Assembly (NCBI GenBank): GCA_963770835.1
Contig: CAVYRH010000008.1
Location: 64,001-128,000, forward strand
DNA from: an uncultured Pseudomonadota bacterium
GTDB lineage: Bacteria > Oederibacteriota > Muellerivitia > Muellerivitales > Muellerivitaceae
DNA: 64,000 bases
Reading direction: 5' to 3'
Part shown: positions 30,001 through 39,000 of the stretch, piece after piece
How positions within the stretch are numbered: position 1 is the stretch's first letter
Layout: the number at the start of each line of letters is the position of its first letter
Program-made: the position numbers

Positions 30001-33000
30001 AAGCCCAAAAGGCCCCCGAGGACGGCCGCGATGACGCTATGCATAAGCTTCCTCCCTTTTATTTGTTTATAAGTATTTTCTAATATAGTTTTCCAAAAAA
30101 AGGGGTCATTCCTCACAGAAGACCTCTTTCATCAGGGCCATCAGTTTCAGCATCTTGGGATTGGTGATGGTGTAATAGATCATGTTCCCTTCCCGGCGCG
30201 TGGTCACCAGGTTGCGGAAGCGCATCTGGAAAAGGTGCTGGGAAACGTTGGATTGGCTGGTGCCGAGGGCTTCGGTGAGTTCCTGGACGTTTTTTTCACC
30301 CTCCGCCAGCAGGGCCAATACGGTCAGCCGGAAAGGATGGGCGATGGCCTTAATGCAATCGGCTGATTTTTTGATGTGGGCTGTTTTCATTTTCCGAACC
30401 TCTATATCTACATTAGATAATACTAATATAGTAATTGAAGTCAAGTGCTTTTTGGGGAACTCTAGGACAATCTCGGGGTGACTTTTCAGATGCAATAAGG
30501 CTGTGAAAAATGAAATCCCCTTTGTCTACCTCATCTCCCCGTCGCGGACAATAGTTTTTTCAAAACCCTTTTTAAGAAATAATTAGTGAACCACTTTGTG
30601 TCTGCCTACCTTTTTTGTACCGGCAAAACCACATGGCATTTATTATGAACCCCGCACTAGCATGGATGATTTGGCCTATAAAACGAAAAAGCTGAGGCCC
30701 GCCTGAATGGGAACAAAAATCGCCGGATTGTCTGAGGAAGCCAGGCCGCCTTGCGAGACGAAATCCAGATCCATCCTGGCCTGAACGAAAAAACCTGCCA
30801 CGTCGGCCACTCGCACGAGCACCCCTATTCCCGGGGACATTAAAAAATCAGGTTCACTATTGGAATGCTCGACGCCCGCTGGGGACGACAGGTTCGTGGT
30901 ATTAACCGCGACCCCCGCCCCCCAAAAAAGGTAAGGGTGCACCGGGCTTTCAAGGAGGTTGTACCGCGCCACCACCATCAACGGCACATATGAGAAACTC
31001 TCGGTGGTTCCAGGCGCCGGATTTTTGAGGTTATAGACGTAATTGCCCGCATCCAGGGATAGGCTAAAATCGGTGGTGAACCGGTAACCAACAAGAATAT
31101 CCCAACCGTACCCCCAGTTGAACGCCTGGGAGGAGTTGGGGCTTGTGGGGACCGAGAAACTTCCATCCACCGACTCAATCCATTGTTTGTCGGGTGCCAA
31201 GTCGGCTTGGGCCCAAAGGGTTGAAATCGGAACCACTAAACCGAATGCGATTAAGCATAAAGTTTTCATTTTTCCTCCCATTGGAAAATAGTAACCTGTT
31301 CCCATGGCTGTTCGCAGATGGGGAACGAAGTTGGCAAGCTTCCTGCCTTGTCCCTGGAAACTTCAACCGGTCGGTTGCCTTTTGGCTTCCAGGAGTTGCC
31401 GGTACCACTGAAGGTGCAGGTTGACCCAGGGGCCCAGGCTGAAACGCAAGGCCATAGGGCGGCTTTCGCGGCGGAACCGCGCCGTTAGGGCTTTCGATTT
31501 CAAAACCCGCGCTAGGACGCGGGCCCATTCGCCGGGATTATCCGTGTCCAGGACGATCCCGCCGCGGGCTTCACCGGGCCCCCTTTCCAATATCTCCGCG
31601 ACGCCTCCGCCCCGCCGGGCCACAACCGGACGGCCGCAGGCAAGCGCCTCGGCCACCGCCATGCCGAAGGATTCGGCCCGGGCCATGTGGACCGCCACGT
31701 CCAGGCCCGATAGGAACCCGGGGACGTCTTGGACCCTTCCCTCATAAACAACGGCTTTTTCCAAACCCAACTTGCTTCGCAAGGCCATCAGGCGGTCATG
31801 GAACCACGCCTCATCCGGTGAGTAATTTCCCGCGATCCTGAACCGCGCCCTAGGCCTTTTCGCCAGGAGTTTGGAGGCAGCACGCAGGAAAAGCTCATGC
31901 CCCTTTCCGGGCGTGATCCGGGCCACCATGCCGATGACTTCTTGGCCCTCCCAGCCCCAGGCTTTCCGGTGCCGCTTGCGGGCTTCCGGATCGGCGTGGA
32001 AACGCCGGGTGTCCACCGGCGCGAAGGCCGTCCTCACCTTCTCAGGATCAACGGGGCAGGTCTCGATCACGTTCCGCCGGATAAAATCGGAGCAGGCCAA
32101 AAGGAGGTCCACCCGCCGGTAAAGCCAACGGTGGAGAAAATCCTTTTTCAGGATGGAGGAAGCGACGTGTTTAGAGAGGACCAGGGGGCCCTTCCAGCCC
32201 TCCAAGGCCAGGGCGGGCACTACCGTCGATAAATCCCTTGAGTGGTGGAGATGGATGAGGTCCGGCGGGTCTTTCCGCAACGCTTGGCGGAACCTCCAGA
32301 TGCCGAGCGGGTGAAAATGCCCGCTGAAGTGGAACGGCCCGGGGGAAAGCCCCCCCTCCACCGCCTTTCGCCCCAAAAACGAATCCGGATCGGCCCACAC
32401 CGAGACTTGTTGGCCCTTTTCCCGCAAGCCGGGGGCCAGCATCAACGGGACCAATTCCATCCCTCCTTCCCCGAGGGAGGAAACGGCCTGGACGATGCGC
32501 AGGTGGCTGTTCATTTTCGAGTTTGTTCCCCTTAGGTGCGATATCCCATATTTAATTAAACGGCATTTGGGCCCGCCCATAGGTGTGGCAGGCCGGACCC
32601 TTATTCAAGTCTGCCGTTTCCAATTTACACGCCGGGGCGGGGCCGGATCAATCGCCCGGCGTTATTCGCCGGATGCCCGTTGAAAAAACTCCTGGACATC
32701 CCGGCAGGCCTCTTCCGCGTCATCCCCTTGGAAGGTGAATTCCAATTCCGCCCCCTTGCCCGCCCCGAGCGAGACCAACCCAACGATGCTCTTGGCGTTC
32801 GCCCATTTGTAACCGTTACGGACGGCAATCTCGCATTGATACCGGTTCGCGATAAGGGCCAGGTTGGGCGCGGACCTCAAATGGGGGCCCCGGGAACCTT
32901 GAACGATGATCTTTTCGACGATTTCCACGCGGTTCCTCACGAGCCCGGTTTACGGCCCATTCCCAAAACCAGGCCTCTTTTGCGCGCTTCGCCGCCGGTG

Positions 33001-36000: not shown

Positions 36001-39000
36001 CGCGCAAATTTATTAAGAAATCTGTAGAAAAGGCCGAAGAAAGGCCTGATTGGCATGAACTGCCGGTTGTGAAAGCTTCTTTACAATGGGCCATAATCTA
36101 AAGGCCGGGCCTCTTTATTCCGAAAGGAATCGGGGCGGATTTAGTGCGGCGCGCAATAAAGCACCTGGGTCGCGAGGCAGGTGCCGCAGGTGTCATAGGC
36201 GCAGCCCAGGTAGGCGGCCCAAGAAAAGGCCCCCTCCATCAGGCTTGCCTTGGATTCGCAGTCGGTGAGCACGGTGGAGCAGGGCCCCTCGCAGGCGGAT
36301 TGCAGGGAACTTTTCATGCAGGACCAAAAGCCGTGGACGGCCTGCGTCTGGTAACCCGCCGGGGTCTTGACTGCGGTAAATTCCTTGACCATCAAGGGAT
36401 CCCGGTCCTGGGCGACCTCGAGCGCCCGGTAGGTGTTGACCCCGTCCGAGAGGTATTCCAGCGCGGCCGCGTCCGGGGACCCCACTTGGTCCAGGTCGTA
36501 AACGCGCCACGTCATGGTGACGGCCTTCCCGTCGCGGGTGACCGTCCCCCCCACGCCCCAGTCCCCGTTGGACCAGCGGCTGGTGAGGGTGTAACCCATG
36601 GACGCCGCACCCGCGACCAGGGCTTTCCAGGCGTCATCCAACGCCATCATGGTCGTATAATCGCTTTTCAACTCATCCAGCCCAAGGGTTTGCAACGGCC
36701 CATTCCCGCCCGATTGCGCGCAAGCTTGGGACGCAACCCACAGGGCGAACACCGCTCCCCATGCCCAAAAGGATGCCCCCTTCGCGGGGCCGCGACAGCT
36801 TCTGCGTTTAATGAAATCCATGGCGAACCTCCTTGGCTCAAAGTCTACTTTTATTGGACACCCGCGAATTCCGGGAATTCAAGGCGGTGCATGCGGAAAG
36901 AGGGCCGCCTTCGGAACGTTCTTCCCATGTTTATTGAATCGGCTTATGAGAATTAGGCTGACGCCTTTTCGACACGGGTCGAAGCGCGGGCGGGAAGCCA
37001 AGCGAATGGGTATGAGTGGCCCGGCCATGAAACTGGCGGCCCCACACCCCTTGTGGGGCTGTTTCATACCATAACCCAGGGTTATCTTCCGGACGGGGGC
37101 CGGGTTTCAACTGTCTTAAAAAGGCAAATCTCCTTATGTTTAACCCAATTGCGTAACCTTTGCGGCCCATCGGCCGTCTAAAATAGGCAAAAGGAACGGT
37201 ATTAATGGTACTGCAACCCCAAAACCGAGCCCAAACCCAACCCTCTTTTTTTAAAGCCGGGGCCGCTTTCCTCGTCTTCATCATCACCTTCTTATCCTTT
37301 GTTCCGGGCGGGTCCATCTCGCTTAAAGTTTCCACTATTTCCCATTCAAGCATCCCATCCACCGGCCACTGGCGGGCCAGCCGGCGCATTTATCCCAACC
37401 AGCAGGCCTCCAGCAAATCCGCAGTGGAAGTTCCCTTCAACTTCTATCCGCCCCAAACCTCCCCGGAAAGGATTTTCCGGGTGGCGCAAGACCGCAATGC
37501 CGCCGTTCCCCCTTTGAACCGCCGTTCCCCCGCCGTGCTTTTCTCCGTCTTACGCATTTAATCTAACCCGCCGTTCCCCCGGGCATTTAAAAACCGCCCA
37601 CCCCTTGTTTCCGATTTTCCGTTTTTAAACATTTTAATTTTTACAACTGAAGGAGAAACCCATGCGATGGAAAGAAATACTGATCGGCGCCGGCATTTAC
37701 CTGTTGGTCATCCTGTCGGGTTACGAAGTCCCTTTTTTCATCCATCTTGTTAAAGCCCATTGCCAAACTCTTATCGCGTTCGGAAAAGAAGAACGAGCGG
37801 TTTGGCGTTTCGCGGTTCACAGCTTCGGGCTTTAACCTCGGGCTAAAAAAACCAACCTACAACGCGGCCGGCCCCTTAGGAGCCGCCGCCAGAAAGGAAA
37901 AAAACATGAATTTTTATATCTCAATCTCCCAGCTGATCCAAGCCGCCGAGGGCCTGGAAAAAAACCTGAGTCTCCTGGCCGAAAGGGCTTTCCGGGTCTG
38001 TCCCCGGGATGCCCGCGCAAACCGGGATCTTCTGGGGCAATGCGCGGAGCAAGTGGGGGCAGCCAGGGAAACCTTGGGAAAGAAGGTCCTCCTCAGCAAG
38101 ACGGCGCTGCGCCACGCGGCCATGCTTTCCCAAATTTTCGGCCTTTGCTTCCGCCGGATGGTTCTCCTGGGGTCCACCGTGGCGGGCATCGAAAAGGAGG
38201 ATGGGGAATACGCCCAAACCGTCCTGTATTTATTCTCAGGAGCCCACCGCCACTTTGTCCTGTTCCAGGAAACCCTGGCCAAGCTGACTTGCGTTCCCCT
38301 GGCATTGGAATTTCAGCCTCCCGCGGATCAAACGGAAAGCGCCATGGGTGTTTTCCAGCGGGAGGAATCCTACCGCCGGGAGATGCTGGGCCTTTTGGAA
38401 AAAGCCCTCGAGCTTTTCAACGAGGAGCGGGAATTGTATGACTCGTTCCAATCGATCAGGCAGGATCTTTTGGAAGCGAAGCGAAAAACGAGGCGGCTCT
38501 TAATCGTCCAGGCGGCTCCCAAAGCCGTCCCGCCTTCGCCGGTATTGGCGCGGAGCTGACGAGCCGTCTGTCCCTGAAGTGGTCGTGAAGTGAAGAAATT
38601 TATGTATGAAAAAACGGCGCCCCGGGATGTGGAATCCATCCCAAGGCGCCGTTTCCTTTTAACCCTCCGAAATTAAGCAGGGGTCTTCACCGCCAGATCC
38701 ACCAGTAGTGCCATGATGGCTTCCCGGGCATCCCCTCCCTCGGCGGTGATTTCGAGATTGTTACCCTTGGCGGCAAGCAAACCGATGATTTCGACGAAAC
38801 TTTTGGCGTCGACAACCACCTTTCCTTTTTGAATCTGTATTCGGGATTTAAACCGGGATGCGGTCTTTTGAAACTCCGACAACGTCCTTATTTGAAACTT
38901 AGATGGGTGTGGAATAGTGACTTTTTTAACCATTGGGAGGCTCCTTTATTGAGTCTTTTTATTTGGATTTTTCGCGTAACACGCATGGGAAACGGCATAA

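Follow-up and report, generated by a model that had tools for sequence, protein, structure and literature searches.

HPr paralogues lacking His15 follow candidate arrest-leader reading frames in an uncultured bacterial family

Introduction

HPr is usually regarded as a hub encoded in one to three copies, and Gln15 combined with Ser46 is the pattern of Crh. Crh of Bacillus subtilis (PDB 1MU4, 1ZVV) resembles some of the proteins described here in its HPr fold, replaced His15 and retained Ser46, and in the presence of HprK in the genome. Sets of many HPrs with mostly one EI, as found here, also occur in Clostridia such as the Lachnospiraceae; related clostridial HPr-family proteins are the Crh-like Ccel_0806 (accessible text of PMC3656788) and HPr1/HPr2 of F. 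prausnitzii (accessible text of PMC11906611), the latter providing in HPr2-FruR a precedent for HPr paralogues that specialize in regulation. E. coli likewise has extra HPr-like proteins with non-transport, stress-linked roles, but these are either accompanied by dedicated EI paralogues or built into fusion proteins, whereas the HPrs of the genome analyzed here are all stand-alone and share one EI.

Upstream open reading frames (uORFs) of the CruR/DUF2946 type combine an exported-type N-terminus, a fixed-length and poorly conserved spacer, and a C-terminal motif with first position in the operon and a patch in which C exceeds G, all features that recur in the leaders described below. Stop-codon arrest peptides have been described (accessible text of PMC10987492), as has an exported uORF that acts through Rho masking (accessible text of PMC9426467). 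Anti-sigma zinc fingers of the ZAS type (RsrA, RsiW; PF13490) share H-x3-C-x2-C and an N-terminal Cys with a small protein of the present locus. The window is a 64,000-nt stretch (positions 64,001 to 128,000) of contig CAVYRH010000008.1 from an uncultured bacterium (GCA_963770835.1), whose HPr genes the genome-wide survey's note had read as Crh-like adaptors sitting with anti-sigma zinc fingers.

Results and Discussion

HPr and PTS gene content

A Pfam search identified eight HPr genes in the genome (PF00381, all over the cut-off and none with an internal stop), as the survey had counted, and a lineage HMM found no ninth. Gene counts also agreed with its single EI (the other match being a PPDK-sized frame of 936 aa) and single HprK, while its single mannose-type EII corresponds to one mannose-type EIIA in an inventory that left out a PtsN-type EIIA encoded in the rpoN operon; ptsH adjoins the PtsN and rpoN genes. 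Five of the eight HPrs keep His15 and Arg17, and five keep both His15 and Ser46. Aligned residues bore out the claim that three lack His15 and one of these also Ser46, namely one with Pro15, Trp17, and Lys46 (PK HPr) and one with Gln15 and Ser46 in the window (Table 1), and another with Gln15 and Ser46 at C8:173246.

HPr matches numbered 0-9 per family relative (median 4). The 2-9 copies previously proposed hold for 29/30 genomes, the remaining one having none and also lacking EI, but 14/30 have three or fewer and matches overcount genes, with three containing internal stops, one gene split in two frames, an identical duplicate in G009, and three DUF4032-type fusions of about 220-240 aa. The genus carried 6-8 matches rather than 7-8, the sister family one as had been stated, and the rest of the phylum 0-3. 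Exactly one EI-N match was present in 28/32 class genomes and none in 4/32. A family-internal radiation of HPr genes served by a single EI is a supported part of the earlier proposal; its novelty in number, said to go far beyond other bacteria, fails because 24/24 control clostridial genomes (mostly Lachnospiraceae) carry 3-11 matches, with one EI over the cut-off in 21.

The clostridial controls include His-less copies that keep Ser46, and His15 was missing from 11/20 HPr copies in two clostridial genomes examined. In the short clostridial forms the His loop is missing through deletion, and these proteins fall in a separate clade, whereas in the present family the loop is kept and the His substituted. 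Gut Clostridia commonly carry large one-EI HPr sets with His-less copies, and such sets have a separate origin in this uncultured family, making pseudo-phosphocarriers a recurrent theme that is undescribed in the literature searched (main texts of mostly open-access papers), in which nothing was found on HPr in FCPU426 or on HPr multiplicity in Lachnospiraceae.

HPr proteins without His15

The His-less copies form one clade (20 intact rows; SH-aLRT 99 in each of two quick trees built on 95 columns with no bootstrap and no Bacillus Crh as outgroup), nested inside the family's own HPrs and apart from the Lachnospiraceae His-less copies. Five fragments under 65 aa were dropped from the first tree and four long or partial rows from the second, in which His15-bearing rows were thinned to every fourth. 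The clade was found in 14/31 family genomes and has Q, E, N, Y, R, or P at position 15, with Lys45-Ser46 kept in most non-PK members. Alignment with a solved HPr placed the Gln of the window's Gln15 HPr at the His15 position, and this protein is 57% identical to the copy at C8:173246. In a search of 50% representatives with a His-less profile, about 17 short proteins resembling the clade scored higher than ordinary HPrs.

Median pairwise dN/dS was 0.22 for the PK group, 0.30 and 0.33 for the Gln15 groups, 0.26 for the zinc finger, 0.19 for an HPr clade of a sulfate operon, and 0.09 for ptsH. Neutral duplication on plastic islands, with the His-less copies heading to pseudogenes, would accord with the patchy distribution, variable neighbours and nearby transposases, the matches with stops and the split gene in relatives, identical duplicates within G009 and between G009 and G010, and two proline changes in g02022 (positions 14 and 20, Leu and Ala in orthologues). 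Such decay is nevertheless very unlikely given values of 0.2-0.3 across several genera at near-saturated synonymous sites, clade-specific invariant residues, and conserved operon order; the conserved subclades are under purifying selection. As judged from sequence, the clade would be unable to carry PTS phosphate and its members are likely inducible HPr-shaped binding proteins.

The reading of these copies as Crh-like co-regulators, with Ser46 phosphorylated by HprK, docking on LacI/CcpA-type repressors and zinc fingers as anti-sigma partners, draws on the two Gln15 copies in which His15 is replaced and Ser46 kept (not so in the PK HPr with Lys46), on HprK and eight near-full-length LacI-family regulators, and on the HPr2-FruR precedent (PMC11906611, accessible text). 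It is distinctly improbable as an account of function: the genome has no CcpA orthologue (TIGR01481 cut-off 442 bits, top score 202, 0/10 matches passing) and no PRD proteins were found in it, Gln is one of six residues at position 15, and the sole copy adjoining a zinc finger, one of three, lacks Ser46. In a phmmer search, HPr entries ranked above Crh (4e-10 vs 2.5e-5). The clade further differs from Crh in the leader ORFs in front of its genes and, to the extent that the outgroup tested can tell, in its origin within the HPr radiation of this family.

Positions 16, 17, 20, and 47-51 are the usual partner surface of HPr, and these are heavily changed in the clade, the PK HPr having Trp17, Lys46, and Glu49. 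This weighs against a decoy or sink, in which induced His-less copies, having no new partner, would compete with HPr and draw away HprK, EI, or regulators that bind HPr, thereby retuning PTS phosphorylation. The retained fold and Lys45-Ser46 of most non-PK members, a single EI and single HprK that would be titratable, and the PtsN and rpoN neighbours of ptsH lend the decoy some appeal, but it is unlikely, as the altered surface and the PK residues fit a new partner better than mimicry.

Leader reading frames ending in Leu-Arg-Ile-stop

The strongest link of the His-less HPrs is the leader directly upstream of nearly every copy, a family-specific ORF of ~118 codons with an N-terminal hydrophobic helix and an invariant Leu-Arg-Ile-stop (LRI leader). 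Directly behind an intact leader, ending 85-137 nt before the HPr start, lie 18/20 clade members; one exception is at a contig edge and the other follows a first HPr in an operon headed by an LRI leader. Outside the clade, a leader precedes 5/111 His15-bearing rows, all in one subclade. Leaders occur in 23/30 family relatives and 0/1 sister-family genome, with none in 67 other phylum genomes bar one weak partial match in a 771-aa frame. HPr is the next gene after 23/61 leaders in the family; it may be cargo of a shuffled island because the other 38 head different genes, such as those for heavy-metal and RND efflux and exported and small membrane proteins. In a cassette of G023 (C175), both leader and HPr contain stops.

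Within the 21 HPr-linked leaders, the six-codon sets for both Leu and Arg are used in full, and in 20/21 the hydrophobic helix is centred 95-102 residues ahead of the stop. C exceeds G around the stop in 21/21 (median C-G +11 per 80 nt, compared with -1 for the genome background, whose 90th percentile is +9), an excess to which Pro/Ser/Leu codons contribute, and since the leaders are homologous neither spacing nor C-richness represents 21 independent observations. Leader dN/dS was high (0.48). No Pfam or NCBIfam match was obtained, including PF11162, the ESM Atlas returned unnamed clusters only with low recognition (DUF2946 and CzcI clusters as weak feature neighbours), and an LRI profile matched 12 proteins in a 5.8-billion protein set.

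With an N-terminal localization signal, fixed spacer, peptide-level C-terminal motif, and upstream position, the LRI ORF has the anatomy of a termination-arrest leader like CruR and the NSP-stop peptides and is a candidate for one. Known types end in RAPP (CruR/DUF2946) or NxP-stop rather than LRI-stop, the HPr-linked leaders lack the CxxC of the DUF2946/CruR uORF, and their commonest recognized cargo is an HPr paralogue instead of a transporter or Sec component. LRI has 0 occurrences as an arrest motif in the accessible main text of a survey (PMC10987492), and the literature search described above found nothing on LRI leaders or leader-controlled HPr. What is new here is a conserved His-less HPr clade coupled to a lineage-specific candidate arrest leader.

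Alternatively, the ORFs might be ordinary small exported proteins and the His-less HPrs co-transcribed passengers free of leader control, as a signal-like or transmembrane N-terminus would allow; Shine-Dalgarno (SD) unmasking was also no better than the control. We consider this rather improbable, because nothing is conserved beyond the final three residues and the spacing between helix and stop (mean column identity 23%), and 9/9 leaders of the genome lie just upstream of a same-strand gene. A SecM-type SD-unmasking model (mean gain 0.13 vs 0.07 in shuffles, 11/21 above control) was not adopted. A sigma-54 promoter or operator shared by all orphan HPr genes was rejected, as 110 upstream regions contained no -24/-12 match in the forward orientation; one enriched upstream motif was confined to a single HPr subclade and points away from the gene.

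The HPr loci of the window

Table 1. HPr genes, LRI leaders, and neighbouring genes (window coordinates).
Feature	Position	Strand	Evidence and remarks
g02022, HPr with His15, Arg17, Ser46	32662..32928	-	PF00381 1.2e-19, TIGR01003 over cut-off; probable start GTG 32928, ORF finder 32940
Stand-alone 60-aa zinc finger (zf-HC2)	33011..33193	-	PF13490
g02024, PK HPr, Pro15/Trp17/Lys46	33190..33507	-	PF00381, predicted fold
LRI leader, 118 aa, 108 nt upstream of PK HPr	33616..33972	-	ends PLRI-TGA
Exported Gly-rich/Trp-rich protein with own LRI leader	34037..35290	-	no Pfam/NCBIfam match
LRI leader heading Gly/Trp-rich gene	35554..35910	-	64% identical to 33616..33972
LRI leader heading 57-aa peptide and ferritin-fold gene	37205..37561	+	ends VLRI-TAA
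57-aa membrane peptide, first behind + leader	37662..37835	+	N-terminal hydrophobic segment
Ferritin-fold protein, 217 aa	37906..38559	+	model, alignment of 6
g02032, HPr Gln15/Arg17/Ser46, no zinc finger beside	38673..38933	-	PF00381 1.1e-16
LRI leader, 125 nt upstream of Gln15 HPr	39059..39430	-
Second Gly/Trp-rich exported protein, upstream of leader	39477..40763	-

The PK HPr matched PF00381 (E 5.6e-8), its AlphaFold2 model (pLDDT 84) has HPr topology, and the top Foldseek matches were all HPr (E 6e-5, TM about 0.66-0.70). Trp17 and Lys46 are invariant in 7/7 family members. The model supports an HPr fold for this protein, its subclade is decoupled from both PTS phosphorylation sites, and the survey's suggestion that some HPrs are decoupled from the PTS stands for this subclade, while the two Gln15 copies keep Ser46.

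The PK HPr stop overlaps the start of the zinc-finger gene (ATGA), whose product (C-x25-H-x3-C-x2-C; PF13490 24.4 bits vs cut-off 22.2) has C3, H29, C33, and C36 invariant in 9/9 aligned homologues. The pair recurs in five relatives (G004, G012, G013, G023, and G025) at 45-76% (HPr) and 42-67% (zinc finger) identity, in line with the earlier report. The wider claim that His-less HPrs sit with zinc fingers did not survive, adjacency being limited to 1/3 copies in this genome and 7/20 clade members family-wide, and zinc fingers as their general partners are not supported. Compared with ZAS proteins, the zinc finger lacks a membrane anchor and falls below the RsrA and anti-sigma NCBIfam cut-offs; no sigma gene adjoins it in this genome, and among PK loci only G013 has an ECF gene, ~4 kb downstream.

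In relatives, the ferritin-fold gene sits inside the PK-HPr/zinc finger/HPr operon. Its product is all-helical with a predicted ferritin-like four-helix bundle (model pLDDT 68); comparison with ferritin/Dps-like chains gave Z 15.9 and rmsd 2.7 over 135 residues, although helical bundles score high by chance. An alignment of six contained no ExxH metal ligands and no invariant His, and the ESM Atlas gave nothing for this protein. In G013 and G024, homologues of the plus-strand leader stand in front of HPr genes with His15, and peptides like the 57-aa one follow LRI leaders at C4:756402, L305, and L326. Homologues of the Gly/Trp-rich gene occur in 15 loci as a frequent neighbour of LRI-HPr cassettes. 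The g02022 subclade has four members (dN/dS 0.22).

Proposed mechanism

Our preferred explanation, held tentatively and with slightly less than even confidence, is a two-layer HPr radiation with the three His-less copies behind LRI leaders as inducible binding proteins. The five copies with His15 and Ser46 would likely still be phosphorylated by the single EI and HprK. On the other layer, the ribosome would stall at LRI-stop unless the membrane-targeting machinery pulls on the N-terminal helix some 100 residues upstream (or a ligand binds), and the stalled ribosome would mask a C-rich Rho-loading patch as in CruR, so that the downstream HPr would be transcribed when export or insertion falters; a rho gene is present in the genome. 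Ser46-keeping His-less members could be HprK substrates or permanent mimics of HPr dephosphorylated at His, and the PK member may bind a new partner, for which the simplest candidates are other products of the operon that encodes it (the zinc finger, the ferritin-fold protein, or the terminal His15 HPr).

A more elaborate version, which we regard as unlikely, would couple the export/insertion state through the arrest leader to phosphate-dead HPrs, the rebuilt Trp17/Lys46 HPr, zinc finger, metal-less ferritin-fold protein, and normal His15 HPr forming an envelope-stress switch that is wired to the PTS and acts on an ECF sigma factor. If the stalling is real, LRI-stop would be a new arrest motif and would connect, for the first time, a nascent-chain sensor with the signalling layer of the PTS.

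His15-bearing orphans may serve as operon-specific phospho-state adaptors. One such HPr clade has a constant place in the sulfate ABC operon, between sbp and cysT, which raises the possibility of direct PTS control of sulfate uptake.

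HPr complement of the genome and its family

A PF00381 search of G000, the genome under study, returned eight HPr matches, three of them within the window, and searching this genome with a profile made from HPrs of its own lineage found no further copy. The eight proteins share 17-57% pairwise identity; five have His15, Arg17, and Ser46, two carry Gln15 with Ser46, and one carries Pro15, Trp17, and Lys46, the signature of a His-less subclade termed PK. The rpoN-ptsH-ptsI locus houses the sole EI, HprK, EIIA-Man, and PtsN-type EIIA (one each), and no PRD protein was found in a search of G000. 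The genome-wide survey's note had reported eight HPr genes for one EI and one HprK, with three copies lacking His15 and one of these also Ser46, which was borne out, and had placed the His-less copies in zinc-finger operons, which did not hold since a zinc finger adjoins the PK copy only; its observation is partly confirmed and its interpretation partly supported.

Among 30 family relatives, 29 had 2-9 PF00381 matches and one had none (median 4), with three or fewer in 14 and at least seven in seven; these counts slightly exceed gene numbers (three matches with stops, one split gene, an identical duplicate in G009, and three longer fusions). The sister family had one match, and the 62 genomes from other classes of the phylum had one (46 genomes), two (13), three (2), or none (1). 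Of the 32 class genomes, 28 had one EI each and four had none. Therefore, the HPr expansion is real and specific to the family of G000 within its phylum. A His15 HPr domain also forms the C-terminus of longer proteins at loci L065, L068 (N-terminal part DUF4032-like), and L099 and of ~210-aa frames in family f13. The metagenomic proteins P0015, P0027, and P0045 contain HPr domains in tandem, two or three per protein and some of them His-less, with N-terminal regions that are SEL1-like or of no known family.

Coordinates of the features discussed (window positions unless a G000 contig is named; L numbers are loci of compared genomes)
Feature	Position	Strand	Other loci
Zinc finger (zf-HC2, 60 aa)	33011-33193	-	
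PK HPr	33190-33507	-	
226-aa exported-type protein	36141-36821	-	
217-aa helical protein	37906-38559	+	
Gln15 HPr	38673-38933		
Gln15 HPr	C8:173246		
LRI leader of efflux genes	49950-50294	-	
LRI leader of efflux genes	C26:396413-396766		
Stand-alone zf-HC2 (~61 aa)	C26:403772-403957	+	
Stand-alone zf-HC2 (~61 aa)	C4:13516-13698	-	
Sulfate-clade HPr (His15-bearing)	C2:109009-109278		In relatives: L043, L049, L051, L057, L074, L087, L098, L102, L104, L116, L125, L128, L131, L138
Sigma-54-like motif	C4:~613150-613195		L095, L106, L111, L117, L123, L132, L135, L137, L139, L079, L080

Precedent in Clostridia

Lachnospiraceae carry many short HPr-like genes. Clostridial comparison genomes, mostly Lachnospiraceae by record title, were reached via a sequence motif, and 24 genomes were taken from those of the 80 loci listed; as they were picked for carrying one His-less copy, they provide a precedent and not a frequency. 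They had 3-11 PF00381 matches (median 5.5, some weak), and 21 of 24 had a single EI over the cut-off. Among 20 HPr copies of Faecalicatena orotica and Lacrimispora amygdalina, the His loop was absent with Ser46 kept in nine, His was replaced in two, and kept in nine. In the Lachnospiraceae genomes G097 and G098 (L280-L299), four to five short HPr-like genes per genome lack the His loop and retain Ser46, accompanied by a His-to-Asp/Glu form. Six HPr paralogues have also been credited to Escherichia coli (PMC6952197). The survey's headline novelty, a radiation far beyond known HPr numbers, therefore falls, and the family's radiation is real and arose independently of the similar one in Clostridia; literature searches on multi-HPr radiations found no description of either set.

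Phylogeny and selection of the His-less clade

From the class, 141 HPr-domain rows were gathered with their neighborhoods, and a quick tree of 136 rows (95 columns) resolved groups including ptsH, a sulfate-operon clade, a wide His15 clade with variable neighbors, and one His-less clade (SH-aLRT 99). After adding 20 clostridial rows, the family's HPrs grouped together (96) with the His-less clade (99) nested inside, separate from clostridial His-less forms. Outside this clade, His was lost four more times (to Ser, Ser, Thr, and Asn). Median dN/dS (Nei-Gojobori) was lowest for ptsH (0.09), followed by the sulfate clade (0.19), PK (0.22), and the two Gln15 groups (0.30 and 0.33), values that mark relaxed yet clearly purifying selection; that the His-less copies are in decay is very improbable. 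The survey had also cast them as Crh-like adaptors; a search of G000 for a CcpA orthologue found none, Crh's defining partner is therefore missing, and a role as Crh-like co-repressors with LacI proteins is improbable.

LRI leaders and a candidate mechanism

An ORF of ~108-125 codons that starts with a hydrophobic helix and ends in Leu-Arg-Ile-stop (LRI leader) lies upstream of all three His-less HPr genes of G000 and of 18 of 20 intact His-less clade members, the exceptions being at a contig edge and the second HPr of an LRI-headed operon. Outside the clade, it precedes only 5 of the 111 rows that carry His15. Nine LRI leaders occur in G000, and a profile built from its family, which distant forms may escape, detected leaders in 23 of the 30 family relatives but hardly anywhere else in the 99 phylum genomes searched. 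An HPr gene follows 23 of 61 leaders; behind others stand efflux systems and proteins that are small or exported. The leader-coupled, phosphate-dead HPr clade is a new variant, with no description found in the literature searched, and part of its novelty belongs to the separate LRI-leader finding with which the survey's note reports an overlap.

Across 21 HPr-linked leaders, LRI is written with all Leu and all Arg codons, and the peptide is therefore what is conserved. Helix-to-stop distance was 95-102 residues in 20 of them and C exceeded G around the stop codon in all 21, while overall identity among leaders was just 23%; that they are ordinary exported proteins seems a poor prospect. G000 has a rho gene. 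In CruR, a ribosome stalled on the exported uORF covers a C-rich Rho site (PMC9426467). Some arrest peptides require their own stop codon, according to PMC10987492, whose main text had no occurrence of "LRI." By analogy with both, the LRI leader would stall the ribosome at termination unless its helix is engaged, and the stall would allow transcription to continue into the HPr gene. The His-less product would be unable to take phosphate from EI; members keeping Ser46 may still be phosphorylated by HprK or may mimic HPr in its unphosphorylated state, and a pure decoy function appears unlikely. Taken whole, stalling, HPr transcription, and a phosphate-dead HPr with an altered role form a tentative model, with somewhat less than an even chance of being right. 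Shine-Dalgarno unmasking by the stalled ribosome did not exceed the shuffled control.

Efflux genes headed by LRI leaders, at the two G000 positions tabulated and at L309 and L314, include an RND permease gene and TolC-CusB-CusA operons, and the C26 leader is Cys/Met/His-rich, resembling CzcI or CruR in position and content. The 226-aa protein, which is Cys-rich at its C-terminus and matched no Pfam family, lies between two LRI cassettes of the window.

The PK operon

Trp17 and Lys46 are invariant in all seven PK members, and the protein is predicted to retain the HPr fold (pLDDT 84; all Foldseek matches HPr). The stop and start codons of PK and zinc-finger genes overlap in G000, and 7 of 20 His-less clade members have this neighbor (six PK and one other). 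Gene order is PK-HPr, zinc finger, 217-aa helical protein, and His15 HPr in G012 and G013, and the first three in G004 and G025; in G000 the helical gene has shifted to the strand opposite PK-HPr, behind its own LRI leader. The structure modeled for the helical protein, at pLDDT 68, is similar to ferritin/Dps bundles (Z 15.9), but the protein's alignment held no conserved His ligands. The PK partner surface would be rebuilt, with a new binding partner likely, most simply from its own operon. The two other stand-alone zf-HC2 genes adjoin neither HPr nor sigma genes.

His15-bearing orphan clades

The sulfate clade (SH-aLRT 96) has 15 members, all between sbp and cysT in the operon porin-sbp-HPr-cysTWA-cysD, and Gly19 is invariant; direct PTS control of sulfate uptake by these HPrs is a candidate role. 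The most widespread His15 orphan clade has a conserved motif 200-250 nt upstream that reads as an opposite-strand sigma-54 -24/-12 promoter directed away from the HPr gene and that may serve a small gene or RNA on the divergent side. Several of the His15 orphans neighbor STAS genes or genes labeled PilZ-like from their motif (L061, L063, L069, L071, L048, L059, L082, L056, and L060), and an identical HPr cassette occurs in L063 (G009) and L071 (G010).
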